Source: Stramenopiles sp. TOSAG23-2
Taxonomy: Eukaryota
Length of the DNA stretch: 61,616 nt
NCBI GenBank assembly: GCA_900128395.1
Contig: LT649248.1
Coordinates: 1 to 61,616, forward strand
Reading direction: 5' to 3'
The notes under the pieces are model-generated. The model had not been told where the DNA came from. It did not search any database and worked only from the letters and a program-made list of their open reading frames with translations. Both the position numbers and the translations under genes were made by a program. Shown here piece after piece: positions 1 through 56,957 of this stretch; positions within the stretch are counted from its first letter, which is position 1, and the number at the start of each line of letters is the position of its first letter.

Positions 1-431
1 AATAAAAATTATTCGAAAACTGAAAATTTAATTATTTAAGTGTTGTAAATTTTAATATCGGCAGATGGAGCATATGGAGCATTTGAAGCGTTTGAACACC
101 CCCCACCCCCACTACCCGACCACCCGACATAAAACGGAGCAGCTCTACAGATGTATACCAGTATAGTGTGCCATACTCCGGGTATTATACCTGAGCATAT
201 AAACTTAGCATTGCAAGCGAAGCGTATATAATAAGTGTGCCAGTGTGCCAGCTGGGCCAGCAGCACAGTACTATATGAATTAATTCTTCACATTTTGCAT
301 TTTGATAGCAACCATAGGCTTGTTAGTATATGGTCAATAATTAATTCTTCACATTTGTTTCGAGAGTCGAGAGGGTACCAAAATCGTACTTGATAGAATA
401 TATGAAATTTGATAGGTGCCAAGTTTACACC

Positions 432-590
432 GAGTCTTCGCTTGCGCTCAGAATTCCTAATTCTGGGCTGTATAGCAGGCGAAGATGAGGGGATCGAGTA
501 AGCTATTAGCCTTTAGCCTTAGACTTCTTATAGTAGGGCTTAGGGGAAGACTCTGCGCTTGCCAGAGTAGGGCTAGTGGCCATTTACATT
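432..590 (+). ncRNA. Candidate structured non-coding RNA (family not identified)
   Basis: GC-enriched island with nested stems that need G-U pairs on the + strand: gtcttcgcttgc/gcaggcgaagat (12 bp), gctcagaatt/aattctgggc (10 bp), gctattagcctt/agggctagtggc (12 bp) enclosing agcctta/tagggct and actctg/cagagt. Confidence 0.4.
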
Positions 591-880
591 GGCCAGTATG
601 ATATAATACTTTCGCCACAACAACAAAAAAATGAATGTATAATAATAATAATGTATAATATGTTAAAAAAAGAGAAGCAAAGTTTTATTAATAAAGATAC
701 ACATACTAGAGCCTATATATGCATTAATATAATATAAGTACTTCAGATCTTTAGATTATTTTATTATATATTTCGTTATAAAAGGTAAATTATATCGTTT
801 AGAAACATTTGGCATCTGTTCTTTCAACTTGTATCCCCCAAAACATCACAAACAGCTTGATTTAATACCCAGGTTACACA

Positions 881-3800
881 ATGTCGGATGATAGTGGTGA
901 TTTCAGACTTCCAAAGCGCAAGTGGAGAAAAAGTCGCAAAAGTAAAGGAGCTAAAAGTAAACGCAAAGTAGAAGAGCAATCAAACAAGACTTTACAGTAT
1001 GAAAATGCTATTATAGACGAAAACGATATTGAATTAGGAATAAAGCGATCTTCGACTGATGTTGAAAAAAGTTATTGGGAAGAGAAAGAGGTTGAAAAAA
1101 GTTATGACGAAGAGAAAGAGGTTGAAAAAAGTGATGGTGAAGAGAAACAAGAGATTGTGGAGAATAAAGTCTTGCATATTGTTAAAATGGATTTTGATGG
1201 CGCGGATGAAGATCATCAATTAAGTTTTAAAAAAGGTGCAATTGTTTTGCTTGACGATAATAGTGATGACAATGATATGGTTGAAGTCTACCTTCAAAAT
1301 GACCCGTCTCAACGTGGCTTTATTAAAAAAGACCATTTGGAAGTATATGATGCAAAAATTGGTGATATCATATCGGTTTATCGTGAAAGTTGGGGTGATG
1401 ATACATATGTAGGTAAAGTCTTGAATATTGGAAATGATGGAAGGATGGAAGTAGAATTTGAGGATGAAACTCTTAATGATATTATTATGGATGAAATATG
1501 CCATGTAGAAACCGATAGATTTAATAAAGCACTATATGCAACAAACAAACTCTTTACAAAATTATATGAGGCAACCGGTGCTGAGCAAAGTTTAAACGAT
1601 ATCGACGAAATAATAAACGGTGTGGAAATTAAAGAAATTGAAGGAGAGACTGTTTTTCAAAAGTTTCCCTTACCGGAGATCAAAGTCATGGCAGAGAATC
1701 GCAAAGGCCATAAAAAAGCGATGATGTGTTGCCACATATTGATTATTTTATCCTGTATCTTTCTGTTACTATTTCATTTTAAAGCACAACGTAAGATTAA
1801 CACAGGCGACTTCATTCCTTACGGAAAGGATTTGTTTATACGAAGCAACGGATGTGATGTGAACTTTATACACCTAATTACAGCCGGACACATGGACAAA
1901 GAAGAAACAACGAGTGCACAAGCTCAAGCCAAAGGTACATTTATGAAGGTAACAGAAACATTGGATCTAATGTATTTAATAAATTATTATGGTTCTTTGC
2001 TTGCACACGTTACCGAAGATGTTGATCCATGTCTTGATTCCGAAGAGAAAATAGAGCAGTTTAAAGACAATTATTGCATTTCTTACATTCACAATGAACT
2101 TTATTTTGGGCAATTTGCAAGGTATTTTGACCCAACTTTATTAACAACAGATGGCAGTATTGTTAAAATAGTGGAAACAGATAAAAAAGTTGAAATTGTT
2201 GCATTTGAAGCGCTAGACTCAAAGACGTTTTGTGAAGTTAATGTCTGGTTAAGCAGTGGTTTAAACAATGTAACAATAATGCAAACTGGACGACCAATAA
2301 AAGTAAATAAAATTGACAATTCAATGGTTCATGTTAAAGAAACATGCGAATGCGAGGGAGGAACGTTATTTTCGCAGAAGCAAGTTTGCCTCTGCGAAAA
2401 CGAGGCGGAAAGAACTACAGAATCCAAATTAAGAAATAAAAAAACCAGCAATAGAGTATCAGATTCGAAATTCATAGTGAAACAAGAGATTTACGAATAT
2501 TCAAAGAATGGAAATTGGAGATTAAATATAGATAATTTGCAAATTAACGGAACAAACTTAGATCTCAATATGACGAACGTGAAAGTAAAGAAAATTAGCA
2601 TGTTTGTACAAAGTGGAAATATTCAAATACATGGGCTTCAACTAAATAGCTCAGGTGTTACATCATGCAATAATGGAGATGAAACTGATATTCGCGGTAG
2701 ATGCAATCACACGATAAAAGTAGGGATTGATCTAGGAAAAGTTAATGGGATAGGAATAATTAAAGCGAATGGTCAAAACCTCTGTGCCCCGAATGGCCCA
2801 AAATCTTGCGAAGGAAATTTACATCTCACAATGGTTACACCGACAAGAATTAAATACTCTCAAAACAATGGTATTGTGTGTGGTGCAGCACACGGTATTA
2901 AAGTCGAACACTCAAACTGTAAGGTTCCAACACAGGCGAATAGAAATAAAAATTATAATAATGATAATAATAATAATGCTTCAAATAGTTCAACAGACAT
3001 TGATAGTATAAACCCCGGCGATCCAAATAGTGACATTGGTTCAATAGACATTGAAGCTGTATACAACAGTACTAACAACAACACTAACGACGCAAATTCA
3101 AATTATGGTGACACCAGTACATGCGAAGGGCAGGCGATACTTTGTACTACTGGTGTCATAGACTTTAATGCTGATATCGATTTTTCTTTCGACACTCCGC
3201 TAATGGGATGCACGGAGGATGAAGAAATTGAAAACATTGAGACTTTTGTAAATGGTGGTGGTTTATACTTTGGTGTTGTAAAATACAATGCTACGCAAAC
3301 TCAATTTGTTAACAATCGCCACACTGTGGACGGTTTACCATGCATTTTCCCATTTAAATATAAGAATAAAATGTATTATGATTGTACGTATGAAGATTAT
3401 GATTTACCATGGTGCACAACTAATTTTGATTCAATTTTAAATCCCAAAAGATTAAACGAAGCGAGGATGGAAGATATAAAAACATGTCCTTCCAACGGTA
3501 CATACATAAATGGCACATATTTGAATAGTACATATTCGAATGGTACATATTTACCTGAATGCGATCCTAATTATCAACAATTAGACGGAAACGACCAGTG
3601 GGGTGTCTGTGAAACGTATGAAAAAATAGAAGGTTATGCTTATAAACTGAAGAATGTAGACAAAATCAGATTTGACAAGAAAAGCAATGCCCTTTTAAAA
3701 GATGTTATTCCATTTGAAAATTTACTTTTAAATGATCCAATAATTGCTTCGATCGAAATGGTAAGCAAAACTAGTGCAAGAGGGCGATCATTTTGGTTAT

Positions 3801-6800
3801 ACGCAACAAGTCCTTCGCATTTGTTGGTACGAAATGACGGGTTACTCATCAATTCCCTTGGACTAGTAAGTGCAAGGTATTTCTATCCAGGTTCTCCAAT
3901 CCGTGTAAGTCCCGGGCTATGCCCGGTGGAAGTTCTTCCAGATGGAATGTTGACTACGCACCAAATGGGCGAAGTTAGCAAAAGCATGGCAAATAAGATA
4001 GGCGTGTCTGGTTTAAGCCGTCTTGCATGGTTTGGAAATTTTGAATTTTTACCTTTTCTAAGAGGATCAACAGTATGGAAACAAGAATGGATTTACAGAA
4101 AAGATGGGTCGTTTTTCCCTCAACTTGGGTTTTTAGAACAAGAGTTGGCGGTTGGCACTATGTTTTTCAATGCAAAAGAAGGTGGCGGCGACTTTTTAAG
4201 CGGTTATGTAGAGACTTCAATAACAGATGATCCATTGTCAGCTGCAGCTCTATTTGCTTTAGTTTTAAGTTATGGTTTATCGGGTATTTGGTTTATCATG
4301 TCTTTTTTTATTGTATTTCCAGCGTTGTTTAATTATATTAATGTTAAATTTGCCGAATATGTTAGAAAAAGGCGAAAGCTTAGCATAACGGAACGCCGTT
4401 TAGAATTAGATAAAAATAAAAAAAAACGAGATCATAAATCCTTAGATGAGACTATTGCAACCGGTAAAAAAGACAATGGTGATTTTTGGGAAGGCGCAAA
4501 ACATTTAGATGATGCCGTATCTATGCTGATGGATGAGTTAGATCCTGAACAAAGTTTGAACGACAATAACGCTGGAAGTGATAAAAGGAACGGGAAAAAA
4601 GACAAGGGGAAAAAAAAGCCCGGTGTTTCTTGTGGATATGTGCATAATAGCGTATTGTGGCTAGCAGCAATAATTATATCTGTCATTATATTTGTCGTTT
4701 TTTTATCCGTCGAACCTGATGGTACTATGTGGACGTTTTATTGGACATACCCGTTCATTATTTTTACGCTTTTAACTCTTTTTTTAACTCGCGAGAGCAG
4801 TTATATAAATTGTTGCAAGTGGATTCTGGAACCGCCAGAAACAGCGGTGAAATCAAAAACTGTAATTGCGGATTTGCATGACAAATTTAACCTGCTAAAA
4901 ATGATTCGTAGTAATTATCGTGCAAAATCTGTCATTGACAGGAACAAAATTAAAATAGAGGAGATCACAGAAATCTTCGATGAGTTAAAGCATAAGTTAA
5001 ATGATGAAAAATACGTAGAAAGTTATAGAAAAAAAATTAATTATTTTTGCGAACTTACAAGCGAGAAAGTAGATGAAATTACACGCAAGATGGAAATTAT
5101 TGATCATGCATGGCTAAATATTGAACTAAACAAAGCTTATTACGTTGATAAATTAACATTTTGGGAAATCCCTGTTATTATGTACCAGATATTTGTTGCT
5201 CCTAAGCTTAAGAATTCTTTAAATGGTTTTGTACATGATGAAATTATTAATGATGATCATTTATTTAATAAATGGTTTTGGAATCAGTCGTTGATGTACC
5301 AATATATAATTACTGTTTTGTTCATAGTAAGAAAAATCGGAATGAAAACCTTTCCTTATGTTGACTTAAGTCTAAAAAATATTCTAGAACTTTTCAAGCG
5401 TGAAAATTTTTTCGAGTTTGAACTGTACAGCAAATATTCGGGCGCAGGTTCGGGCGATGATTCGTATGATGAATCATCATCATCTGATGTCGAAGAAAGC
5501 GACGGAGATGTTGACGAAGAATCTGACGAAGAATATGATGAAGAATCTGACGAAGAAAATGATGAAGAATTTGACGATGATGAATCTGACGAAGACGATG
5601 ATGAAAGTGGGGAAGACAGTGTCGCTGAATCGGATGCAGATGAAGAGTGGGATTCAGATAGTTGTTTTCGTCGATGTCTTTGTTGTTTTTCAGGTGAAAA
5701 GTCGGATTCAGAACCTGAAAGATGTCCAATATGTAAGAAAGAAAAAGATCCAGATCCAGAGAGTGATCCAGAGAGTGAATACGAACTGGATTCAAATGAC
5801 GGGTCGGTGGATTCCGATGAAGTGTCCGATTCAGATGAAGTGTCCGATTCAGATGATGTGTCCGATTCAGATGAAGGGTCTGATTCAGATGAAGTGTCCG
5901 ATTCAGATGAAGTGCCCGATTCAGATAGTTGTTGTCGTCGTTGTTGTCATCGTGGTGAAGTGTCCGATTCATATTATTGTACTTGTCCCATTGGAGTTGG
6001 AGCTTATTTTCGCTTTCATGATATCAGGTGTTTCGTTAATTACTACAGTACTCACCAATTTTCTAAAAGTAGTTACATGGTTAGAGGTTATAAAGAGGTA
6101 GAAGAATCGAAAGGAGTAACGTTGAAAAAGTTTAAATTGACTTATGATTCATACTGCGATACAAAGGGATTAGCAAAAATGCCTTTAAACACAAAATCCA
6201 TAAATGATGTATGTCAAAAATTTGGAATTGAATATGATAAAAACAAAGAAATATTTAAAAAAGTAAAGCTGCTGAAAAACTTTAAAACTACTCGTGGAGG
6301 CTTCGAAAATGAAATGGATGATAGCAAAGAGAAATTTTTCTTCGGTCCAATTTGTTTTTTGGTGTACATTTTCTTTAGTTCGTGGTTTTTCATGTTGTTT
6401 TTAGTATATGGTATCATCAAACGTTTTTTCCCCGCACAGCAACAACTATTTTTATCTCTTCGAATTGCTGCATTGTTGTCTTTCAGCATGCCTCTGGTCA
6501 TGATTGTTTTTTTGTATCATTATGCAACCTATGACTACTTTACATTGCCATTTTACCAATATGATGATTTCTTGTATCGCCCATACAAAATTTATTCAAC
6601 AAGTTTTTTGGGATTTGGCCAAGTTATTTTATGGTTATCCGTTTTTTTATTGATACTTGGCAGTGCTGATTTATTATTATTTTACTTGCTAGGGGAGGTA
6701 AATTACTCGACAAAAATAGTTTACGCCTTCAAGCGAGGCGAAAAGGTATTAAAAAAAGAAGATAGCATGGGATTTGTAAAAAAATATTTTGGGAACTGTT

Positions 6801-9800
6801 GCACATCGAACTGTTGCACATCGAACTGTTGCACATCGAACTGTTGCACATCGAAAGGGAAAAAAAGCAATAAAAACGACACTGAAAATAGCACTGAAAC
6901 GAAAGCAAATGGCCAGGACACTCAGAAAAAGGACAACCTCAAGAAAGGTATTTCCTATGAAGTAATTAATGTAAATGTAAAAAAAGATGGTTCCATCGAT
7001 GGGTATGAATTACGAGAACACGTGCGACAAAAAATACAAGGCGCTGCATACTGCGGAATTTTTAGTACTAATTACAGAAAAATATGCAAATATCAATTAG
7101 GTGATATTGTATCTGTAGTTTCTAAGAAGAAGAACGATGACGAAGAAGAGAAAAATGGAAATAAAAAAGGTGAATATCAATATCAGCTGGTGGATTATAA
7201 GAAATGGAAGAGGAAGAGGAAGAAATGGAAGAGGCAGAAGGAGCCACAGGAGGCGAAAGAAGGAGATGGCGAGACTTACGATTGGGAACAGAATGGATGG
7301 AAAAGAGTTTTTACGAAAACGATGCAAGAAATCGTCCCAAATTATAGATTAGATATTAAAAACATATGGTATTTACTTTGGTATGTCAGTAAATTTTTGC
7401 AAGCATTTATAAATTTTTTTTTTCTCTTAGTTCTTGATTTTGCAATATCGATTTTGCTCGCATATGTAACTATGGTCTTTACTTGGTGGATTTTGGGTGC
7501 CGTTGTTAACCCGGAAAGAATACTGGCGTTTGCTTCTGCTGTAGTAGTATTCATTGGAACTATTAAACAGATGGTAACAGATCTAAAAAGTATGAAAGAG
7601 GAAGCGACTACAAAAATTAAAAAAGTAGTAGAAAAGATGATACAAGATATCATTGCTAAATCCAGTTCGATGTCCAAAGCAATCGCTAAAAATGTTAAAC
7701 TTCCTAAATTGCCAGGCGCATTCTCCAGTCTAGATATGAATGCATTAGAAATATATAGCCTTGTGAAACAAGATGGTGGTGTGAAAAAGCTCTCTAAAAT
7801 GGTTGTTGCTGCATCCTTTCAAGAATTTGTGACGAAAGAAAAGATCAAGAAGGATTCCGACACATATTCATTAGTCATGATTGTACAAGAATTAGTCGAA
7901 TGCCTACTATTAAAAAAATCAGAACAGCTAAATGCGTTTGGAAAAGTGGCAAGTAAGATGATATTATTGTTGTTAAATAGTGGTGGAAAAAATAAAACAC
8001 AAAACGAACAAAAAAGTCTAGAAGATGATAAAAATGATACAGAGATTATCCATAAGTTATTGCAAAGTTTGGTTGTACTAGGTATCGAGTCAAAAGATAA
8101 TGTTACTGTTCGAAGAGCAATTACGTCATTTGAAGAGTGTTTTTTCTTGATTATAGAAAAAGAAAACATCAATGCTGACTTTATGAAATACGTTTTTGTA
8201 TTTTTAAAAATGATCACAGCTGATTTAAAAATATTACAATCTTGCATGAAACGCGTAACCAATCTGTTTGACAGTAACCCTGAAACGGGAAAGAATGATA
8301 AAGAGCAAGTTATAATTAGAATACAAAATATTTCAGTGAATCTCCTGAAATTAATGATATCCTTTTCCAGTTTGAATTTTATGAATGTAGTTATTAAAAA
8401 TGTATTATTAAACGGAGAAGTAAAAATTGGCGAAGAGTTTTTTGATTTACGCTTTGTGGAAAAATTTGAAAAAGAATTTTTTAAATTTGTAGAAATAACT
8501 TATAAATCCAGAGGGAAAATTAGCGAAGTTGAGAGGGCGGGAGAAAATATTATCAAAATTTTTGTAAACAATAGCATGCAAAAGTTAACAAATAACATAA
8601 AAAAAGATGGAAAAAAAGCTTCTATTGTGAAGGTGGTACGACCTTTAGGGAAAGAAATTGCCAAAGCGACCGGTCAAATGTTACACCAGATAATTGAAGA
8701 CACTACTAGTAAAGGAAATGTACAAAAAAAGAATACAGCCAAGTCAGTAACTGCTGCGGATTTACTTAATTTTTTCAAAAACATATTGTCCCATATGATG
8801 GACATAATGTCTGATAATAGTATTAATAATTATATGGGAAAAGAAGCACATGGTAAATTCGTCAAAGAAATATGGCAACCAATTCGTTTAGATGTAAACT
8901 ATGATTTAGTCAAACCAGTTGAAAAACAGTTTCGAAATATTTTTAGTAAATTATTGATATTCCTTAAAGATAAAGCAAATGAAACAGAAGAAAAAGAAGG
9001 TAAAAAAAACTTGATATCACTAAAAATGGAATTATTTGCCTTTTTCTTAAATATGTTTTTTGGACCCAAGAAGGAAGGAAGCAGGGAGGAAAACCATAAC
9101 CATTCCAATAAATATTTTGTAAATGCTGTCATGAATTTGGGCATCATTAAGAATAACAAGATAAAAGTAGACAAAGTAAAGAAAATGATTGATACATTGA
9201 AAGACATTGTAAAAACACAACTGTATTTAAAATTGTGCAATGAATGCGTTGAGTGTGGTAAGGCACGCAAAGACAAACGTAAAAACTATTGTAAAGACTG
9301 TCGAGACAAAAAAAATGAAAAGGAAAAAATCAAAGTGGTTTCTGATAGAAAAAATCGCATTGAGAAAATAAAAAAGACGATTAAGCCTATATTTGACACA
9401 TTACGGGAAATGCAATCTGGTTTAGCTAAGTTTCTAAAAGATGACATAAAAGACGAAGAGGCAAGTAATGGCAAGATCGAAAAATTAAATAGCTTGGATC
9501 TTGCATTGGATCTTGTTGCAACATACATAAATGCTTTAATTGAGTTTTCAATATCATATTTAAAGCAAGAAATGAAATCTGGTCTTGATAAAATTAAATC
9601 ATGGAGTAAAAGTAAGACAAAAAGAACCAAGCAAACAGAAACAGAGGGTGAGAATAAGAATTGTGTGGATACAGTGATTGATTTATTAAATCGTACAAAC
9701 AAATATATAGAGAAAGTCAAAGAAGCTTTCGAAAAAGCTATCGATGAAAAAAAAACCAAAGCTTACAGCGGGATCAAGGAAGGTCTTGATAATATATATA

Positions 9801-11197
9801 ATCTAATTGTTTTTGGTTTAAATGAATTAAAGGATATTGATAAAAAAATTGAAGATAGCACGGTGAATCAATCCGATTCAAAGGAAAAGAATAATGAAAA
9901 ACAGAAATTGTTAATTAAACGTTTTAATTCTATGAAAAAAGTGTTCATTTCATTAACTTTATGCATTTGTGATATGTTTACTACATATGGACTTAAATTT
10001 CAAGGAAAACTTAAGGAAGGAGAAACGGAGATAACAAAAGTTATCATTGATATAATGACCTTTATCCCACCATCTTTGTCACATATGAAAGTCATTATTG
10101 CATATTTTATTTCAATATTTGGTATTCCAGAATTAATTGTGACAAGCTTGAAAGAGTTTGTAAATATGTTGATTTCAAATAATGGTAATAAAAAATCACA
10201 ATACATGAACAAAAGGGTACATTTAATTTTTGATGCCTTTTTTAGTCAAGAAAATATTTTGAAATTACAAGATCTAATGCGGTCATATATTCGAACCGTG
10301 CGTAACAATTTGGGTAAGGATACCGGCGAAGAAATGTCAGACATTATTGAATTTTTCAAAACAAACATAAGAGATATGAGTACAAGAATAGCAAAGTCTC
10401 TAGGTGATGAAATGTTAAAAGTATTCCAAAAAACATATTTTCCAGACATAAAAGCGCCGACGATAGATGGAGCAAAAAATCTAATGGTTACCTTGTATAA
10501 ATTTTCAACAATGAAAGATAAAACTAATGCTATGAAAAATATATTAATTCAATTTCTCGATACGAAATATGGCGCATTGGATGATCCAAAACAAGCAAAG
10601 CAAAAAATTAAAATTATTGATTTTATTGAAAAGTGCGAAGAAATACGTAAGATTATTAAAAAGTTGCGAACAGATAAAACGAAGACAACTAAAATTTCAA
10701 AGGAAGAAAAATATCGACGAATATTCAAAGAAGTTGATACTAGTGGAGATGGTTTAATAGATTTCGATGAATTCAAAGTTTTAGTTAACAAGACTTTAAG
10801 CTTAAGTATGGCACCTCAGCGTTTAAAGGATATGTTCTCTATGTGGGATACTAATAATGGTGGTAATCTTGATATCCATGAATTTGAAAAAGCTATGGAA
10901 GATTTAGAAGGCGAAATTACAAAATCATGCATACACAAACTTGGTCTATCCGAACAAACCGTCTATCCAGTTTTATTTTGTCTTGCAGTGTATATGATTG
11001 GAGTCCTAGGCTTTATTTTAATGGGTTTTGCGGCATTTACCGCTGGCACAGCATTTAGTGCTGGTATCGGCTCTATCCTGCCATTGGTTGCCGGGAAATC
11101 AGCTAGCTTCGGGAATTTTATTAAAAATGTCAATTTTGAGGAACTAGTGGAGAAAGTATTGAAAACAGATTTTCAAGGGAAGGAAGAAGATGAGTAA
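881..11197 (+). CDS. Giant multipass membrane protein (3438 aa) with SH3, Tudor-like, fibronectin type II, acidic/Cys repeats and a C-terminal EF-hand pair
   Basis: Uninterrupted 10.3-kb ORF. SH3-like DFDG..QLSFKKG..RGFI (~1178-1351); FN2 TVDGLPCIFPFKYKNKMYYDC..PWC..WGVC (~3323-3610); many hydrophobic segments; EF loops DTSGDGLIDFDEF and DTNNGGNLDIHEF. Confidence 0.85.
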   Translation: MSDDSGDFRLPKRKWRKSRKSKGAKSKRKVEEQSNKTLQYENAIIDENDIELGIKRSSTDVEKSYWEEKEVEKSYDEEKEVEKSDGEEKQEIVENKVLHIVKMDFDGADEDHQLSFKKGAIVLLDDNSDDNDMVEVYLQNDPSQRGFIKKDHLEVYDAKIGDIISVYRESWGDDTYVGKVLNIGNDGRMEVEFEDETLNDIIMDEICHVETDRFNKALYATNKLFTKLYEATGAEQSLNDIDEIINGVEIKEIEGETVFQKFPLPEIKVMAENRKGHKKAMMCCHILIILSCIFLLLFHFKAQRKINTGDFIPYGKDLFIRSNGCDVNFIHLITAGHMDKEETTSAQAQAKGTFMKVTETLDLMYLINYYGSLLAHVTEDVDPCLDSEEKIEQFKDNYCISYIHNELYFGQFARYFDPTLLTTDGSIVKIVETDKKVEIVAFEALDSKTFCEVNVWLSSGLNNVTIMQTGRPIKVNKIDNSMVHVKETCECEGGTLFSQKQVCLCENEAERTTESKLRNKKTSNRVSDSKFIVKQEIYEYSKNGNWRLNIDNLQINGTNLDLNMTNVKVKKISMFVQSGNIQIHGLQLNSSGVTSCNNGDETDIRGRCNHTIKVGIDLGKVNGIGIIKANGQNLCAPNGPKSCEGNLHLTMVTPTRIKYSQNNGIVCGAAHGIKVEHSNCKVPTQANRNKNYNNDNNNNASNSSTDIDSINPGDPNSDIGSIDIEAVYNSTNNNTNDANSNYGDTSTCEGQAILCTTGVIDFNADIDFSFDTPLMGCTEDEEIENIETFVNGGGLYFGVVKYNATQTQFVNNRHTVDGLPCIFPFKYKNKMYYDCTYEDYDLPWCTTNFDSILNPKRLNEARMEDIKTCPSNGTYINGTYLNSTYSNGTYLPECDPNYQQLDGNDQWGVCETYEKIEGYAYKLKNVDKIRFDKKSNALLKDVIPFENLLLNDPIIASIEMVSKTSARGRSFWLYATSPSHLLVRNDGLLINSLGLVSARYFYPGSPIRVSPGLCPVEVLPDGMLTTHQMGEVSKSMANKIGVSGLSRLAWFGNFEFLPFLRGSTVWKQEWIYRKDGSFFPQLGFLEQELAVGTMFFNAKEGGGDFLSGYVETSITDDPLSAAALFALVLSYGLSGIWFIMSFFIVFPALFNYINVKFAEYVRKRRKLSITERRLELDKNKKKRDHKSLDETIATGKKDNGDFWEGAKHLDDAVSMLMDELDPEQSLNDNNAGSDKRNGKKDKGKKKPGVSCGYVHNSVLWLAAIIISVIIFVVFLSVEPDGTMWTFYWTYPFIIFTLLTLFLTRESSYINCCKWILEPPETAVKSKTVIADLHDKFNLLKMIRSNYRAKSVIDRNKIKIEEITEIFDELKHKLNDEKYVESYRKKINYFCELTSEKVDEITRKMEIIDHAWLNIELNKAYYVDKLTFWEIPVIMYQIFVAPKLKNSLNGFVHDEIINDDHLFNKWFWNQSLMYQYIITVLFIVRKIGMKTFPYVDLSLKNILELFKRENFFEFELYSKYSGAGSGDDSYDESSSSDVEESDGDVDEESDEEYDEESDEENDEEFDDDESDEDDDESGEDSVAESDADEEWDSDSCFRRCLCCFSGEKSDSEPERCPICKKEKDPDPESDPESEYELDSNDGSVDSDEVSDSDEVSDSDDVSDSDEGSDSDEVSDSDEVPDSDSCCRRCCHRGEVSDSYYCTCPIGVGAYFRFHDIRCFVNYYSTHQFSKSSYMVRGYKEVEESKGVTLKKFKLTYDSYCDTKGLAKMPLNTKSINDVCQKFGIEYDKNKEIFKKVKLLKNFKTTRGGFENEMDDSKEKFFFGPICFLVYIFFSSWFFMLFLVYGIIKRFFPAQQQLFLSLRIAALLSFSMPLVMIVFLYHYATYDYFTLPFYQYDDFLYRPYKIYSTSFLGFGQVILWLSVFLLILGSADLLLFYLLGEVNYSTKIVYAFKRGEKVLKKEDSMGFVKKYFGNCCTSNCCTSNCCTSNCCTSKGKKSNKNDTENSTETKANGQDTQKKDNLKKGISYEVINVNVKKDGSIDGYELREHVRQKIQGAAYCGIFSTNYRKICKYQLGDIVSVVSKKKNDDEEEKNGNKKGEYQYQLVDYKKWKRKRKKWKRQKEPQEAKEGDGETYDWEQNGWKRVFTKTMQEIVPNYRLDIKNIWYLLWYVSKFLQAFINFFFLLVLDFAISILLAYVTMVFTWWILGAVVNPERILAFASAVVVFIGTIKQMVTDLKSMKEEATTKIKKVVEKMIQDIIAKSSSMSKAIAKNVKLPKLPGAFSSLDMNALEIYSLVKQDGGVKKLSKMVVAASFQEFVTKEKIKKDSDTYSLVMIVQELVECLLLKKSEQLNAFGKVASKMILLLLNSGGKNKTQNEQKSLEDDKNDTEIIHKLLQSLVVLGIESKDNVTVRRAITSFEECFFLIIEKENINADFMKYVFVFLKMITADLKILQSCMKRVTNLFDSNPETGKNDKEQVIIRIQNISVNLLKLMISFSSLNFMNVVIKNVLLNGEVKIGEEFFDLRFVEKFEKEFFKFVEITYKSRGKISEVERAGENIIKIFVNNSMQKLTNNIKKDGKKASIVKVVRPLGKEIAKATGQMLHQIIEDTTSKGNVQKKNTAKSVTAADLLNFFKNILSHMMDIMSDNSINNYMGKEAHGKFVKEIWQPIRLDVNYDLVKPVEKQFRNIFSKLLIFLKDKANETEEKEGKKNLISLKMELFAFFLNMFFGPKKEGSREENHNHSNKYFVNAVMNLGIIKNNKIKVDKVKKMIDTLKDIVKTQLYLKLCNECVECGKARKDKRKNYCKDCRDKKNEKEKIKVVSDRKNRIEKIKKTIKPIFDTLREMQSGLAKFLKDDIKDEEASNGKIEKLNSLDLALDLVATYINALIEFSISYLKQEMKSGLDKIKSWSKSKTKRTKQTETEGENKNCVDTVIDLLNRTNKYIEKVKEAFEKAIDEKKTKAYSGIKEGLDNIYNLIVFGLNELKDIDKKIEDSTVNQSDSKEKNNEKQKLLIKRFNSMKKVFISLTLCICDMFTTYGLKFQGKLKEGETEITKVIIDIMTFIPPSLSHMKVIIAYFISIFGIPELIVTSLKEFVNMLISNNGNKKSQYMNKRVHLIFDAFFSQENILKLQDLMRSYIRTVRNNLGKDTGEEMSDIIEFFKTNIRDMSTRIAKSLGDEMLKVFQKTYFPDIKAPTIDGAKNLMVTLYKFSTMKDKTNAMKNILIQFLDTKYGALDDPKQAKQKIKIIDFIEKCEEIRKIIKKLRTDKTKTTKISKEEKYRRIFKEVDTSGDGLIDFDEFKVLVNKTLSLSMAPQRLKDMFSMWDTNNGGNLDIHEFEKAMEDLEGEITKSCIHKLGLSEQTVYPVLFCLAVYMIGVLGFILMGFAAFTAGTAFSAGIGSILPLVAGKSASFGNFIKNVNFEELVEKVLKTDFQGKEEDE
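1058..1147 (+). repeat. Coding 30-bp tandem repeat x3 (EVEKSYxEEK)
   Basis: Three imperfect copies of ga(t/g)gttgaaaaaagt..gaagagaaa. Confidence 0.8.
5810..5926 (+). repeat. Coding 18-bp tandem repeat x6.5 (DSDEVS)
   Basis: Repeated gattcagatgaagtgtcc with minor variants. Confidence 0.9.
6794..6853 (+). repeat. Coding 15-bp perfect tandem repeat x4 (NCCTS)
   Basis: aactgttgcacatcg x4. Confidence 0.95.
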
Positions 11198-41820: not shown

Positions 41821-43651
41821 ATGGCACATTTATTAAAACAAATCATAACAAAAAATAAAATAATTGGTGCAGCAGCTATCATTGCAACATCAACATATTT
41901 ATACGATGAAATAAATCAATACAATAACGACAACAACAATAACAATCATATTCGACCTGCATATTGCAGTGGTGAAACAAAAGGTAATGCAATGACTAAA
42001 CAAACAAAGCCAATATTATCTATCCCATCGATACAAAGTTTATATTTTGAATTTCATACACCAACTGAACTATTAGAAAATTTAGCAACAGAAATGACGA
42101 GTGAAATGCAAAAAGGTTTACAAAAAGATAATTGTGATATTAAAATGCTTCCATCGTTTGTTTGTGATTTACCAACTGGTAATGAAAATGGAAAATTCTT
42201 AGCACTTGATTTAGGAGGTAGTAATTTTCGTGTATTGCGTTTCAAGGTAGAAAATGGCGATGTTACATTGGAAGCAAGTAAAAAAGCAAAAATACCAAAA
42301 CAATTAATGTCAAAATCAAGTACTGGTGTTGATATGTTTCAATTTATTGCTGATACAATTGCACAATTACCATCCGATGGAGAGGATCATAGTCAAAAAT
42401 TACCACTTGGGTTTACGTTTTCATTTCCATGTCAACAATATAAATTAAATGCTGGTACATTATTACATTGGACAAAAGGTTTTGAAACAAGTGGTGTTGT
42501 TGGTGCAAATGTCGTAACATTATTACAAAATGCATTTGTTGCAAATAATATCAATGTAGAAGTTGCTGCATTAGTAAATGATACGGTTGGTACATTAGTT
42601 GCACATGTTATTGAAGCACCAGATACAGTATTAGGTATGTAAATATTTACCTCTAATACAACAAATCTATGAAACATGGTTATACTAACATAAATTAATA
42701 TATTTTTATTATCTACATATATATATTGCAACAACAATTCTTATTATATATACATATATAGGTGTCATCCTTGGTACTGGATGCAATGCATGTTATGTGG
42801 AAGATATTGAAAATGTATCAAAATGGACGGTTGATCGTCCAACAAATAAATCAAAAGTAATTATAAATATGGAATGGGGTGGTTTCAATTCAAAAAATGT
42901 TCCTGGTTTGTATAATAAATTTGATGAAATTATTGATACAAATGAAGATTATGGCGCACAAAGATTTGAGAAACAAATTAGTGGAAGGTATTTAGGTGAA
43001 TTAGCACGTTTAGCTTGTTTCCATTTATTTCAAAATGAAGAAATTTTATTTCAAAATAGTTTAATCAATAGTAATAATAATAATAATAATGATGTGGAGG
43101 AACAAAGAAAATTGATTCTTTCTGTTTTTGGTAAATCTCATCATTTTTTAACACCAATGATGTCAAAGATACAAAGTGGTGAAGCAAATGATGTAACTAA
43201 AAATCCATGGTTACGCGCTGCTGCGAAAGCAGGTGTCGACTTGAATGGTGAATACACCGAAGCTTTGTGTGAAGGATATTTAAAGCAAGAAGGTGTACAA
43301 ATGGAAGATATGAGATATCATTTAAATTTTTGGAAGTTATGGTCAACATTGGATATATACGATCGTCAAATAATTCATGAAGTATGTGATATGGTTTCAA
43401 CACGTGCTGCACGTTTATCTGCTGCTGCTATTGGTGCAGTTGTTCGTAAAATTCATAAAGAAGATAGTTGCACGGTAGCAATTGATGGTAGTGTATTTGA
43501 ACATTATCCATATTTTAAACAAAATATGCAAATTGCATTATTAGAAATGTTAGGTGATAAAAAACAAGTTAAATTAGAATTGAGTCCAGATGGTAGTGGA
43601 AAAGGTGCTGCATTAATTGCAGCTATTGCAAATGTTGATAGTAAATTATAA
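41821..43651 (+). CDS. HXK: Hexokinase, two exons (41821-42634, 42762-43651), N-terminal hydrophobic leader and C-terminal SKL
   Basis: KMLPSFV, LALDLGGSNFRV, LPLGFTFSFP, WTKGF, VNDTVGTL, spliced LG-VILGTGCNACY, INMEWG, FEKQISGRYLGE, DGSVFE, DGSGKGAAL. Confidence 0.95.
42635..42761 (+). other. Spliceosomal intron (127 nt)
   Basis: GTATGT donor, TACTAAC at 42683-42689, TAG acceptor; removal restores the conserved GVILGTG motif. Confidence 0.9.
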
Positions 43652-50445: not shown

Positions 50446-50667
50446 AATATCATATTTTATGATATGCACCCCATAATGTTTCTCAATTTTTTAGTATGCA
50501 TCAGTAATAGTACGTTGTATTACCACAAAAATTACAAAACAAAAAAGTGTTTTAATATAAAGCATATCTTTTTAATACTAATACGAATAATATTTTATAT
50601 ATATATATAATATTTTTTAAATAATACTCGTAAAAAATACGAAGAAGAGTGTTCGTACGCGTATTTT

Positions 50668-53600
50668 TTATAAATCATCGCTACCACTACTCATAATATC
50701 ATCATCATCATCAGGTAACGGTACACTAAGTGCAGTTTTGAACTCATTATCCATACTACGACCAAAAGTGAACGGTACGTTAGAAAAAGGATTTTTGACG
50801 TTTCCGTAAGAGATAGATTTTGGGATAGATTTATCGAGATCAAAATTAAATGCAATTGGTTTGTCCTCAGGTGGCATAGGAGGAGATGCTTTACTTGGTG
50901 TTGGAGCATTGCTTGAAATCTGGAACATTGGCGTGCTATCGTTGATAATCTTTGCCATCGTTGGTTCAGAAGGCGTAAATAATACATTGTCAGTCTTTTT
51001 TATTCTCCATGTTGGTTCAGAAGATGAGACTTTTAAAGTTTCATTTTCTGGAGATGGAGATTTGGACGTCCAGCGATCTTTTACCCTCTTTTTTTTGCGT
51101 TTCTTTATTGTTTTGCGCATACTAGCAGTCGTTCCAACTTTAAAATTGACTTTTGATGGTATTGATTTCGGTGGTAAAAGCGGCAATAATGCTGGTATTT
51201 TTTCTGCAAGCTCCTGCCAGTTTTTCATCTTGCATTCCTTTTCCCTTTTTAACATGGAAGCGACCTTTTCAAGTGCGGTGGAAGAAGTAGAAGCAAGCGC
51301 TTCCGGAGTTAAATACCTCATATCTTTGGAAAGGACCCAAAAACTACATACATCCAATACACGCGATATCAAATCTGAAGTTCTTTCACCACAACTTTCG
51401 CATTGGCATTGATCCTGTGCCCATTCGACACATATATGTAAAGGTGTTTTTTGTTGCTTCCATTTGATGTATAAAAACCAAGTATTTTCAGCATGTTCTG
51501 CATCGAAAACGTGTTCCATCGCGCTTTCTTTTATAAACTCTAACATTTCAATAAAGAAATCAACACCGCAATCATGCTCTAATGCAATCGCTAAAGGATG
51601 TGTGTCTATTGATCCATGCTCAATAAGTTTTTTGTAATCTCCAGAACATAACTCCTTGATATCATCGATTGTTGTACGTCCCCATTTACTGCTCCGTTCG
51701 CTAAGTGATTTTATTGATTTGTTTTTCAAAGTATCTTTGGTATGAATTTTGTATAGTGGATATTTCTTTGCAAGCTCCCTCATAGAAACTTCTTCAGTGC
51801 AAACAACACACTCACCGTCACATTGTTCACATGGTGCATCTGGACTACAATCGGGACAAATTTGGCATCCGCAACGTTTATCTGTAGGCCATTCTTTTGT
51901 TTCGTCTAGATGATCCATTATGTCCCTGTTCTTACACGAGGAAGACCCTTCAAATGGGCAATTGCATGTTTCAAAGTTGCCACTGCAGACAAAGCACCAA
52001 TGATGATGGCAGTTACTACATCCACCACCAGGTCTGATATGATGACATCCATGACCATGGTATTTTGTAGTTCTGATACTACATTTTGGGCAAGGTTTAG
52101 AGGTCAGGTTGAGAAATTTTCCTGTGTCGCTTTTGGAAAATTGTTGATACTCTTCACATGATGATCCTGGATGATATGGCATGTGGCATAATTTACAAAT
52201 TTGTCCTCTTGTGCAATGTTTACATTTGTACGGCTCAAGCAATTTTGAAAATTTAAATATCCGATCCGTGATCTGGTCCTTATCTTCTACGTCAGTGCTA
52301 GCAAGAAGTGTACTACGCGGAATAATATATTTTTCCACCCTTTTTTTTTTATCCACTTTTCTCAAATTCTGTTCAAAGGTTACAAAAACGTTTGCACTAG
52401 TGGTGTTCTCTTGCTGGGGCGGAAAAAATAATTCGACAAATAAACGCTGTATGCGGCCTAAATATTGATAATTTGACTCGCCACCTTTCATCCTCGGCAA
52501 ATCGTTTCCATTTACATGTGTAATCCGCCAACCAGATAAATAGGACAATTTAGGTTCTGTTACAGATGCTACAACAATTGTGTTGTTCTCATCAATTTTA
52601 ACAGTAAATAATGCGCCTATTTGTTGATGGCTCATCGTTAATCCAAGCCTAGGTCGTTGAAGTTTATCAATATTGTCATTATATATGCGTTCTAACAAAA
52701 GGTCAACCAACTCTAACACATCACGTGGTACAAATCTTATCGTAAATGCATTTTCGTCTTGTAAATTCGCATAAATTTTATCCCTTAATTCGGACATAAC
52801 CGCCCCCGATTTCTCCGTGTTAAACATCTGGCCTAGTAAGTTAGATATTTCCTTATCGTTGATGATACTACGTTGCATGGCTTGTGCCACGGTGCTTTTT
52901 GGAACAAAATCAATGTTGCCAGGGAAACCTTCCTCGTCTATAACGAGATTGCTCGCTTCCACTACCATATCCACTACCATTTCGTAATTCAAATTTTGTG
53001 TGCCAATTGCTTTAATCGTGTTCACACTGTTTATGAATACCGGCATATTTCGATGTTTGTACTTATCGTGTTGCATCTTACTTCTTACGAACTTATTTGG
53101 TTCTCCGACAACTGACCGTCCTGACTTGGAAAGCTCAACGCCTTCCACTGCACATGGACTATCGTTATCAATAGGATTTATATACATGTCCATTTTACCA
53201 GTTGCCTCATTTAGCTGTAATTTAATAATATCATTATTGGTATCAAAAAATTTCATAGACAGTCCTTTCTTCAATCCATTATATTTTTTTTCCCCGTGAC
53301 CATTTACAACATATGCATTGCTTTCAATAGATTTTTCGACTTTTGGATGTTTGAAATGAATAACAGTTCCATCGTCTTTGAACATGTTGACTTCTTCAAT
53401 GCCCGGAATATTACCCTTATTGCCCGTTTTTAATGCTGCACGTATTAAATCAAAATCATCTGATTTATGCTCATCGTCACTAATATCCTTCAATACATTC
53501 GTTAAAGATGTCGTATTACGTCCATTTGTTTTTTCTACATGTTTCAATTTTGTTTTCAGAGCAAACATTGGATTTTTTGTACATGTCTCCTCATGTAAAA

Positions 53601-55422
53601 CGACTTCCTCATATGAACCGAAAAAACGACAATTATAATCGCAAAAGAAATGTTGTACATCCTCACCTTTCGTCTCCTCGTCATCAAGTTCATTATTACC
53701 ATTGCTAAATAATTTATCCAAACATAAATTTTCCAAAGCATCATTAAGATAATTTGTTTTCTTTGCTTTTGTTATTGAATGAGGTGGGTCAATATGACAA
53801 CACATGGAACAAGCTGGGCAAAAAGCGCGGCATTCTACAGGAATTTTTTCTTCTTCAACAAATTTATGAAATTTCATCAGCTCCTTGCCTTTGATAGGTT
53901 TATACTTTCCAGATTTTTTCGATTTCCAATGCATGAAACATTCATCATTTAATGCAGCTTCTTTATGCAAACGAAACGTTGATGATTGATCCCTGCCTAT
54001 TTTACAAAAACAAGTTTCACAATACAATACAGATGATTGAGGAGAAACTTCTGTTCCACATTCGTATCGTAGCATCTCGTTGGAATCACTATTTTTTCGC
54101 CAGTATGACTTGCAACTTGTACATTGCCATCTCTCTCCATTTGACAATGGTTTTACACATAAGCGCAATGGATGAATATGTTTCTTCACACTTGTTGGTT
54201 CAAAATAACGTAATTCTCCATGGTAAGCGGTAAGTGCACGATCAAATAGATGGGATAACATTTGTAATTGGGACAATTTTTCCAACGTTATGAAACATTT
54301 ACAATCGGGATCTACACATTTCAATCCATCTTTTGTGATAAAATTGCTTCGATCTTCCAATGATTGGCGAAAGTAATTTGTCGAACAAGGGACACATATA
54401 TGATGTGAACAATTTTCTGTAGTGCGAAAGATGAATGAATTATCAACTGATATATCACAAATTTTACATTTGACTTTAGTCGAACATATTTTGACTTGTT
54501 TTAAAATTGGTTTATCACATGCATGGCATATCATGGAAGAAGGATGGTCAATATTATTATTATTACTACTAGTGACGCATTTGTCACAATACGAGATATG
54601 GCCACATGGAACATTTAACATATTTGCCAGTCGATTATGACAATTTGCACAATCTTCTGCACGAATATTATTAGCAATTTGTATAGTATTTTCATTCATT
54701 TTTTTTGATAACAATAATTGCGTTGTTTTGATGACGTCGTTACCATTGTTTGCCAATAGACTTGATACATCATCCGTGTTTATTTGAAATGTTGTGCTTA
54801 ATAAATATAACATTGCATTTTTATTATTTGATAATAATGCTTTTTGAGAAACTTCTTGTTGTTTTTTTATTTGATCTTGTTGGGAAGTATCATATATAGA
54901 TTTTGCACGTTGATATGCAATGTTCAAACGAAACGTATTAGATGTAATAAATTTTTGCGGTACTTTTGAATGATAAGACTCTTCTTGAATCATATCTTGA
55001 AACTTTTTAAATATATTCTTTTTCGACTCTTTTTGTTCCAACGATGTTAATATTTTTGTATGAATATTTTCAAGTGCTTTGCATTGTGAGTTACTATCAT
55101 TTGTTTTATGTTTGTTTGAATCTTCTGTCTCTATATCATTACTAGGGTGCTCTTCCAAAACATCTTGTTTTAGACCTGACGTTGATAGAACATTAATTTG
55201 TGTAAAAATATTATTATCATTACTATTAATATTATTATTACTACTATTGAATATATTAGTAAACATACTTTTGAACATTGGTGTTGATGTTTCAAACATT
55301 AACATTTTTTTCTGGTCATTTTTTGTATTATTATTTGATATACTATTTTCATTTTTTATTATAATATCATTATCATTGATAATTGTTTCCGTAGAAGCTG
55401 TTTTTAACGTAAAATTTTCCAT
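50668..55422 (-). CDS. RBR-type E3 ubiquitin ligase (1584 aa) with CUE/UBA-like, extra RING, NAC and PDZ-like inserts
   Basis: RING [15 protein letters not shown]; RING1 CKIC..[15 protein letters not shown]; split IBR (RAFCPAC ... CKHC..[10 protein letters not shown]..SC); RING2 [21 protein letters not shown]. Confidence 0.85.
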   Translation of the reverse strand: [1584 protein letters not shown]

Positions 55423-56219: not shown

Positions 56220-56957
56220 ATGAAACGAATCATATGCATCATAGTATTATGTTTGTTAATATGTAATGTACAATATATTTATGCAAATAAAATACAATTT
56301 AGTTTTACGAAAAAAATCGATGAGATAGTAGAAGAAGAAAAAAACGAGGATATCAGTAGTAGTAGTAATGATGATCAAGATGATAATGTGAACGAGGATA
56401 ATGACAATAATGCTATGATTGATAATGAAAATGATCGTACAAGCTTTCGTTTTAAATCAACTGCATCATTAAATACGTTGATGGACACATCCGATTCGAT
56501 GAATGCAGGTAAAGGTGGCGGAAAGAAAAAATCAAAATCACAAAAGAAAGCTGCAAAAAAACAAAAGAAAGCTGCTAAAAAGAAATCAAAAGCTGCAAAA
56601 AAAGCAAGTAAAAAATGTTCAAAAAAAGGTGGCAAAGGTTGTAAAAAGCCAACATCGAAGAAGCCAAAAAAGCCATCGATTACGAAAAAAGTAACAAAAA
56701 CTGTGACAACAAAAACAAGTACTACTACTTTATCAAGTATTTCTTCAATTGGCGAAGAACCATGTATTATGTGTGAATAAGTCATGGATTCATTTGACGA
56801 TACATGTTATCATGATTTCCCAAGGGAATACCAAACGGTATGTAAAAATATGTATCATTATGGTGGTGAAATTGTAGAAATGATGTTGCATAATTTTCAA
56901 GATTGGGAAATTTGTCAGAAATTCATGTGTCCAGCCAATTTCTTCGATGAAAAATAA
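56220..56957 (+). CDS. Secreted Lys-rich protein with a C-terminal saposin-B-like domain interrupted by an in-frame TAA (56778-56780)
   Basis: Signal peptide; the frame continues after the TAA: CIMCE*VMDSFDDTCYHDFPREYQTVCKNMYHYGGEIVEMMLHNFQDWEICQKFMCPANFFDEK* (six Cys). Confidence 0.7.

Follow-up and report, generated by a model that had tools for sequence, protein, structure and literature searches.

What is the pairing domain of a ribosome-exit factor doing inside a zinc finger of a ubiquitin ligase? This question is raised by a gene on contig LT649248.1 of Stramenopiles sp. TOSAG23-2 (assembly GCA_900128395.1), of which positions 1 to 61,616 of the forward strand, 61,616 nucleotides in all, were analysed and are here called the window. 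A single open reading frame (ORF) of 1584 amino acids (aa) plus stop codon fills window 50668..55422 on the minus strand, just where the original prediction had placed it, and two copies of the gene from other assemblies, the protein P0002 and the metagenome locus L001, are 97% identical to it. Judged by its sequence, the product is a member of the RING1-IBR-RING2 (RBR) superfamily of E3 ubiquitin ligases with a new architecture, in which the IBR zinc finger is split by a long insert and the insert holds a NAC (nascent-chain complex) domain of the beta, or BTF3, type.

The identity as an RBR ligase, claimed from the letters of the DNA alone, was borne out by a family alignment of 50 sequences, comprising the window piece, P0002, P0003 and 47 other listed phmmer matches. 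Over RING1-IBR-RING2, the profile built from this alignment matches the solved ligases ARIH2 (9.2e-18), ARIH1 (1.4e-16), parkin (2.2e-11) and HOIP (3.4e-10). RING1 (residues 319-376; 54295..54468, minus strand, as are all features of the gene given below) carries C319, C322, C338, H340, C343, C346, C369 and C374. Its C3HC4 ligand columns are conserved in 42-47 of the 50 rows, AlphaFold2 (AF2) models it at a predicted local distance difference test (pLDDT) of 85-97, and the VIA fold comparison places it with RING1 of RNF144A (Z 9.6), with ARIH2 (Z 8.9) and with RING1 of HOIP (Z 8.1); with its ligands in place, it is predicted to be able to hold an E2 enzyme. At the other end of the module, RING2 or Rcat (51985..52092) keeps the candidate catalytic cysteine C1126 (codon 52045-52047) within the motif HGHGCHHI. 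C1111, C1114, C1126, C1135, C1138, C1143 and C1146 are Cys in all 50 rows, and the two histidines that follow C1126 are conserved in 50 (H1127) and 49 (H1128) of them, so that the GCHH with its catalytic Cys, as originally described, is indeed retained and an Rcat with a predicted catalytic Cys can be assigned. Pfam IBR_2 matches RING2 at 2.4e-5, below the cut-off (24.8 vs 27 bits), and parkin 5caw_A matches it at 0.009.

The IBR lies in two parts. The first consists of a linker helix and the first zinc knuckle (residues 505-542; 53797..53910; pLDDT 75-95), with C535 and C538 in FCPAC (~53809-53820), and the second (52156..52224) provides C1067, C1070, C1076, C1079, H1084 and C1089. All eight ligands of a C6HC finger are thus present, the profile match to ARIH1/2 runs through the IBR, and C535, C538, C1076 and C1079 are Cys in 50 of 50 family rows, all of which points to a genuine IBR. 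From C538 to C1067, that is, between ligands 2 and 3, there are 528 residues, an interruption that sets this IBR apart from those of known RBR ligases and agrees with the insert of about 530 aa between the IBR halves that had first drawn attention to the gene. When the same spacing was counted on the 38 of 50 alignment rows with Cys in both columns, it came to 14-30 residues in 24 rows, 59-157 in 11 rows, 333 in P0003 and 528 in both the window protein and P0002; insertions have therefore entered the loop joining the second and third ligands repeatedly in this family, with the window gene as the extreme. The AF2 model of residues 313-1215 (mean pLDDT 55) is confident in RING1, in the helix with the first knuckle, in the second IBR part, in RING2 and in the tail behind it, with the insert below 50. 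On this model VIA found the RING1-IBR of HOIL-1L at Z 7.8 over 142 residues (model range 2..794) and parkin at Z 7.3 over 136 residues (range 2..779), both ranges spanning the insert, but a range gives the first and last aligned residue only. Foldseek likewise puts RBRs at the top for the same model (best E 3.6e-3), and no usable match to residues 250-1220 was found in the protein Atlas.

Within the insert (residues 543-1066; 52225..53796), an open frame with RNA contigs inside it and across its 3' end, residues 654-714 (53281..53463) form the NAC domain, which is seen by Pfam, by solved BTF3 chains, by AF2 and by an RNA contig. Pfam NAC (PF01849) matches residues 661-713 (E 4.5e-15; 55.7 bits, cut-off 21.3), PDB chains of BTF3 match at 3.9e-11 to 2.5e-10, and no NAC-alpha chain of the PDB appears at E<=1 in the sequence search. 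The segment IPGIEE...GHGEKK, which the original prediction had likened to BTF3, comprises residues 672-713 (window 53284-53409) and falls within the NAC match; its proposal of a BTF3-like NAC domain inside the IBR holds, with IBR ligands on either flank. Over residues 654-714 the identity to 55 BTF3-like proteins is 43-65%, the closest being unnamed marine-protist sequences, and the alignment with BTF3 can be traced upstream to about residue 622 and through residue 714. AF2 gives the NAC part a pLDDT of 77-88, and 3mcb_B superposes on it at a root-mean-square deviation of 1.8 A over 44 columns with 57% identity. In the fold search BTF3 chains come first (7.5e-5, 33-57% identity), with NAC-alpha chains behind them (from 4e-3, 22-26% identity), and in a tree of the 31 distinct rows left of 57 once duplicates and rows <55 residues had been removed (only foreign BTF3s included) the domain groups with marine-protist BTF3s at support 82/87. 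By sequence, fold and tree, then, this NAC domain is of the beta rather than the alpha type. Nor is it foreign in composition, because its G+C content at third codon positions (0.246) resembles that of the gene (0.28), the neighbouring genes having 0.17-0.26. Searching shorter proteins with the insert yielded 60 rows, 53 of them NAC-beta proteins and 7 of them pieces of the window gene, and for the insert outside NAC the protein searches found fragments of this same gene as the only homologs. Two of the BTF3-like proteins, P0048 and P0052, have two NAC stretches, P0052 duplicating the entire N-terminal half including the anchor motif, an arrangement that could be a tandem duplication or an assembly artefact.

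Is so unusual a fusion genuine? The gene is real and conserved, and comes from an AT-rich, intron-poor marine eukaryote. P0002 (1573 aa), which has 31 cluster members, is 97% identical to the window protein from end to end; L001, also 97% identical, has the same aldo-keto reductase neighbour; and in an independent metagenome DNA contigs tile 50660-53768. The insert is open over 524 codons in its reading frame, the remaining five frames having 12-66 stops, and the probability of such an open frame at the composition of the insert is 1.7e-19. RNA-library contigs from three metatranscriptome studies are colinear with the DNA of the gene: one (53114-53423) covers the NAC domain and extends beyond its C-terminal end into the insert, two (52557-53059 and 52757-53035) fall within the insert, and two more (52094-52316 and 52152-52330) bridge the junction between the insert and the second IBR part. 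The protein fragment P0004 runs from the first IBR part into the insert. The insert has not been seen spliced out, in that no contig of the three RNA runs links the two IBR halves across it. The only skip among the RNA contigs is one of 36 bases in the 3' tail (50804-50841), in a single low-depth contig; one further contig connects 50710 with 55207 and is read as a low-complexity repeat. Two intervals, 54604-55116 and the bin 53578-53748, are without RNA contigs in all three runs, and one contig of run X17 departs from the window sequence at 53771. As the RNA contigs come from metatranscriptomes, they give neither expression level nor transcript ends. At 53369-53412, RNA contigs of G+C-richer organisms follow the NAC core for about 40 bases before diverging; these are probably BTF3 mRNAs with the common conserved stretch, which would account for the peak in depth that run X17 shows in its 53236-53406 bin.

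Further evidence on the conservation of the gene came from comparison with L001, where the overall ratio of non-synonymous to synonymous substitution rates is 0.31 (28 synonymous and 36 non-synonymous changes); split by region, the ratio is unusable at 1-12 changes per region. The window stretch itself is present in 12 DNA runs of 8 marine or seawater studies, with two possible source runs excluded, and in 6 RNA-library rows of 5 studies. The window is cellular eukaryote DNA, with a hexokinase gene split by a short spliceosomal intron, and when viral contigs were scanned with the family alignment, none of the 45 pattern matches obtained was confirmed; a viral origin was accordingly rejected, and the suggestion of the original prediction that host domains had been captured as decoys does not fit. 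A separate observation concerns P0005 (218 aa), in which a RING-H2 finger (residues 36-79) is joined to a stretch 92-93% identical to insert residues ~724-843, beyond which the frame is lost. This gene call is probably chimeric or frame-shifted, and it may represent an alternative context for the insert.

How widely is the combination of NAC and RBR distributed? A phmmer search with residues 250-1250 against 1.84 billion representatives gave 939 matches at E<=0.001, of which 150 were listed. Most of the listed matches cover residues ~1064-1214, and a search among shorter proteins with residues 1060-1215 gave 4 rows. The family shares a layout of extra RING, RING1, IBR, RING2 with HGHxCHHI, and Cys-rich tail, and no annotation of it was found in the sources consulted. 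Our own BTF3 profile, run with filters off, matched four of the 150 proteins scanned with it, namely the window protein, P0002 and two plain BTF3s, and a Pfam scan of 31 of the 150 listed matches detected NAC in two, both plain BTF3-like. As far as the sequences tell, NAC and RBR occur together only in the window protein and its near-identical copy P0002 among the 150 proteins scanned, and of 361 six-frame stretches of the window this gene alone matches the BTF3 profile. No description of an RBR-NAC or RBR-BTF3 fusion was found in the literature searched, where papers on RBR and BTF3 were judged by title, which accords with the original prediction, where none was known.

The only distant ortholog with a split IBR among the matches listed is P0003 (835 aa, ending within RING2). 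It shares with the window protein the N-terminal helices, both RINGs, a C1/ZZ-like finger, an FCPEC knuckle and the insert flanks (29% identity), rising to 57% over the second IBR part and RING2. Its insert aligns with that of the window protein over ~55 residues at its N-terminal flank and ~25 at its C-terminal one, and the core does not align; homology of the two insert cores was therefore rejected, the alignment being confined to the flanks. A decayed NAC in P0003, to which a MAFFT alignment had pointed by placing a stretch under the NAC core, was likewise rejected, Pfam finding nothing there and the BTF3 profile giving E 4.7. Various accessory modules occur in other listed members: Ank, RWD and HTH_3 in P0062, TPR and Hsp70 in P0088, KH in P0019, UBA in P0028, and C-type lectin with ephrin-receptor-like modules in P0007 and P0041. 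EF-hand modules are also found, and in the 31 listed matches scanned the accessory modules lie outside the RBR. Several such modules are linked to translation or proteostasis in other proteins.

What, then, might the NAC domain do? The NAC subunits dimerise via their NAC domains (PMC6527867). As one NAC domain makes up only half of a semi-beta-barrel and acts in dimeric form, the one in the ligase presumably needs a partner, and since it is of the beta type, the likeliest partner is NAC-alpha. We therefore favour, with the scales evenly balanced, the reading that the ligase is docked through its NAC half-barrel to a partner with a NAC domain, likeliest NAC-alpha, which would serve as adaptor or as substrate. 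In such a scheme the NAC domain would be a docking handle that pairs with another NAC domain, likeliest the cell's NAC-alpha, and NAC-alpha, with its UBA domain and its cargo, would be suspended from the IBR, with the E2-binding RING1 on one side and the catalytic RING2 on the other. Ubiquitin would take the usual RBR route, from E2~Ub at RING1 to a thioester at C1126 and on to the substrate, which could be NAC-alpha itself or NAC-bound clients and nascent chains.

Modelling lends some weight to the pairing. A two-copy complex model of residues 647-722 scored 0.47, the best of three controls 0.00; its runs agree in at least 63% of contacts, with a partner pLDDT of at least 60. The mark applied to such models was reached by 21 of 30 solved same-chain pairs and 0 of 23 solved single chains in microbes, and in eukaryotes by 17 of 29 pairs and 0 of 30 single chains, with only 1 of 7 pairs reaching it among those without an older solved relative. 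The modelled interface (residues 672, 674-684, 688, 695 and 701-710) is formed by the first and last NAC strands, which are the strands of the dimer interface in solved NAC structures. That two NAC copies bind is thus supported by the model, not shown by it, and the pass may be memory, because NAC dimers have already been solved.

Several results weigh against docking to NAC-alpha, at least in its simplest form. It was the homodimer that passed, and the model thus gives no preference for NAC-alpha over self-pairing; the window itself contains no NAC-alpha. The RRKxxKK motif of N-beta-NAC is required for binding of NAC to the ribosome (PMC6527867), and this anchor is absent from the window protein and from P0002, the BTF3 motif GTARRKKK being substituted in the window protein by a different stretch of 11 residues. 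In a comparison of the 40 residues upstream, limited to BTF3 rows with at least 30 upstream residues (n=47), all 47 show the RR motif, and their net charge runs from +5 to +11, as against +3 for the corresponding stretch of the window protein and P0002. The ribosome-exit role that the original prediction had assumed is weakened accordingly, and a direct one is less likely. The domain lies on a branch of length 1.36, the median tip being 0.063, and BTF3-like constraint has therefore been relaxed or changed. Between the near-identical copies the NAC part has 2 synonymous and 1 non-synonymous changes, too few to indicate selection. Finally, P0003 has no NAC detectable by Pfam or by the BTF3 profile, so that NAC is not needed for the ligase as such. 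The loss of the anchor, the length of the branch and the absence of NAC from the ortholog argue together that the domain is not simply NAC-beta at the ribosome, and they keep alive the reading of it as a relic.

That reading, in which a BTF3 copy landed in the insertion-tolerant IBR loop and now serves as a spacer or scaffold without a NAC-type partner, is in our judgement unlikely, yet of real weight. Unrelated inserts of 59-333 residues occupy the same loop in 12 relatives, the insert of P0003 being among those without NAC; the anchor motif and the BTF3 tail have decayed and the domain is on its long branch; and the rest of the insert is without homologs. Nevertheless, a mere relic sits poorly with a strand core that is still 43-65% identical to BTF3s and reaches 55.7 bits against Pfam NAC, with a confident NAC fold (pLDDT 77-88) in which the interface strands are the best preserved, and with the strand edges that an unpaired NAC half-barrel would presumably leave exposed.

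Self-association is a rather improbable alternative, whereby the NAC domain would join two ligases, or a ligase and a beta-type NAC protein, and dimerisation would control activity without NAC-alpha. The two-copy model and its use of the first and last NAC strands favour it. Against this stand the possible memory of solved NAC dimers, the beta character of the domain in every comparison, and the matched solved human dimers, which are alpha/beta (3mcb, 3lkx) or alpha/alpha (3mce). Beta NAC subunits normally pair with alpha.

Quite improbable is that the ligase replaces NAC-beta in the heterodimer with NAC-alpha at or near the tunnel exit and, with its RBR catalytic centre carried by the IBR beside the NAC barrel, ubiquitinates nascent chains as they emerge, where the adjacent C1/ZZ-like finger might read new N-termini. 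Were it true, the protein would be a natural chaperone-embedded co-translational E3. Among known systems, RNF14 comes close to the window protein; it is an RBR that works through an RWD domain lying outside its RBR module, with the A-site side as its target. RNF14 is reported to act with GCN1 at stalled ribosomes (10.1101/2022.03.21.485216). The likeness lies in the use of an accessory domain to take an E3 to the translation machinery, whereas in the window protein the handle is a NAC domain inside the IBR and the link to the ribosome is putative.

Very doubtful, in turn, is a mimic for orphan quality control, in which the beta-like NAC would capture NAC-alpha lacking its beta subunit and the ligase would mark it for removal, keeping the alpha/beta balance. 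A beta-type interface without the anchor does suit free NAC-alpha better than ribosome-bound NAC. NAC subunits are moreover known ubiquitination targets of Not4, the RING E3 of Ccr4-Not, which ties ubiquitination to NAC subunits and to co-translational quality control (PMC4890865; 10.1101/2022.08.29.502450). Not4, however, is a plain RING E3 that modifies NAC in trans and has no NAC domain, and the orphan mimic assumes the same steps as docking to NAC-alpha and leaves the large extra insert and the other modules unexplained. Weakest of all, an artefact, be it chimeric assembly, an unspliced intron or a viral gene with a stolen host domain, is close to refuted, for although the 5' third of the gene is without an RNA contig in three runs and one RNA contig diverges at 53771, the gene is colinear in P0002 and L001, metagenome DNA contigs tile much of it and P0004 enters the insert, the 524 codons are open, no contig joins the IBR halves, the composition is native, and the neighbours are cellular, a spliceosomal intron among them, with no viral relative found.

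Docking to NAC-alpha thus remains the reading that we favour, and comparison with known proteins brings out what is distinctive in the window protein. With the Ariadne-type RBRs ARIH1 (HHARI) and ARIH2 (TRIAD1), its best solved relatives by profile and, for ARIH2, similar in fold at Z 8.9, it shares RING1-IBR-RING2 and the predicted catalytic Cys in RING2. It differs from them in that no Ariadne domain was detected by Pfam and in having an extra C3HC4_3 RING, the HGHxCHHI form of RING2, the Cys-rich tail and an IBR split by 528 residues. Within the protist RBR family (P0003 and P0006-P0152) the domain order is the same and the second IBR part, RING2 and the Cys-rich tail are 35-57% identical, but no other scanned member carries NAC. 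With BTF3, or NAC-beta, the window protein has the strand core and the fold in common, and traces of the N-terminal helix can be aligned. It departs from BTF3 in that its NAC is embedded in a ligase of 1584 aa, the anchor is replaced, the C-terminal tail is absent after the NAC core and the branch is long. BTF3 is a stand-alone small protein with an acidic C-terminal tail, and here NAC makes up residues 654-714 of 1584; with the anchor motif tested and found missing as well, the window protein is not a BTF3 family member in the functional sense.

The usual picture of an RBR ligase is that of a compact RING1-IBR-RING2 unit whose accessory domains are located elsewhere in the protein; among the human RBRs described so far, most accessory interaction motifs are found towards the N-termini and not in the RBR module itself (PMC3940038). 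The present gene means that an IBR can be interrupted by hundreds of residues and yet be retained, that this family uses one loop repeatedly for insertions, and that one lineage put the pairing domain of the most abundant ribosome-exit factor into it. If NAC pairs with NAC-alpha, we would have before us a natural fusion that ties a HECT-like RING ligase to the nascent-chain machinery, and that could serve as it stands as a design for tethering ligases to NAC; in the absence of pairing, the gene would be a clear example of a domain that was captured and has decayed within a zinc finger. Either way, the 939 matches make up a large family that shuffles RWD+HTH_3, KH, UBA and TPR+Hsp70 modules.

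The remaining parts of the protein can be described briefly. Residues 1-255 (54658..55422) begin with an Asn-rich low-complexity start, followed by a helical stretch (residues ~158-250) common to P0003, whose BLASTP alignment begins at residue 158; no Pfam family matches the region. In L001 (1-460) stop codons lie upstream of the codon equivalent to Met40 of the window protein and the ORF starts 39 codons later, unlike P0002, which has a complete N-terminus, and the true start codon is for this reason uncertain. The extra RING (residues 256-307; 54502..54657), of the zf-C3HC4_3 type, reaches 28.6 bits with Pfam PF13920 (cut-off 27) in a scan of this piece by itself, and precedes RING1 in most relatives scanned. 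Between RING1 and the IBR lies a C1/ZZ-like Cys/His cluster (residues 415-475; 53998..54180) that stays below threshold: the window copy gives Pfam C1_2 at E 0.54, below the cut-off, and no PDB match, and the homologous piece of P0003 gives C1_2 at 3.8e-5 (24.3 bits vs cut-off 26) and ZZ at 0.0025 (18 bits vs cut-off 21.4). Behind RING2, a family-specific Cys-rich extension (residues 1147-1215; 51778..51984) is near-invariant in the family and matches no Pfam family. The C-terminal region (residues 1216-1584; 50671..51777), a basic, Pro/Ser-rich tail with an acidic end, gave no family match either.

Two further elements had been proposed within the insert. Of the C2HC-type zinc motif CDYNC..H..C (53581..53643), the letters are present (C594, C598, H610, C614) and no Pfam family matches them; it is kept in P0002, and in P0003 only the first Cys aligns. 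The second, a 'PDZ-like' stretch, found no support, with no Pfam PDZ match at E<=5 and with Foldseek giving GRASP-domain rows only (E ~0.7, on a low-confidence model). This stretch belongs to the remainder of the insert (residues 715-1066; 52225..53280), with predicted helices and then strands, for which no usable match was obtained in Pfam, in the protein Atlas (residues 716-1066) or in protein searches, and which is of low confidence in both AF2 models; in that of residues 528-1100 (mean pLDDT 45) the NAC part alone is confident. A hidden second NAC-like half, which would make residues 716-790 part of a single-chain NAC, had no Pfam match and no confident pairing in either AF2 model. An intein was rejected, as there was no Hint, intein or endonuclease match and no His-Asn pair at the end of the insert.

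The window around the gene has a G+C content of ~25-36% (in 2-kb windows), and no tRNA genes were found in it. Its long ORFs include hexokinase, aldo-keto reductase, a protein kinase, EF-hand proteins, a Dpy-30 motif protein and an acyl-CoA synthetase-like enzyme. The intron of the hexokinase gene (42637-42762, plus strand) reads GTATGT...TACTAAC...TATAG, with TACTAAC as branch site, and most of the other ORFs of the window appear to be without introns. At 881-11197 (plus strand) there is an ORF of 3438 aa with a fibronectin type II domain near residues 821-848 and EF-hands near its C-terminus, the remainder having no Pfam match. Another, of 186 aa at 56220-56780 (plus strand), shows a hydrophobic signal-like start, an acidic Asn/Asp-rich part and then a Lys/Ala-rich low-complexity run.

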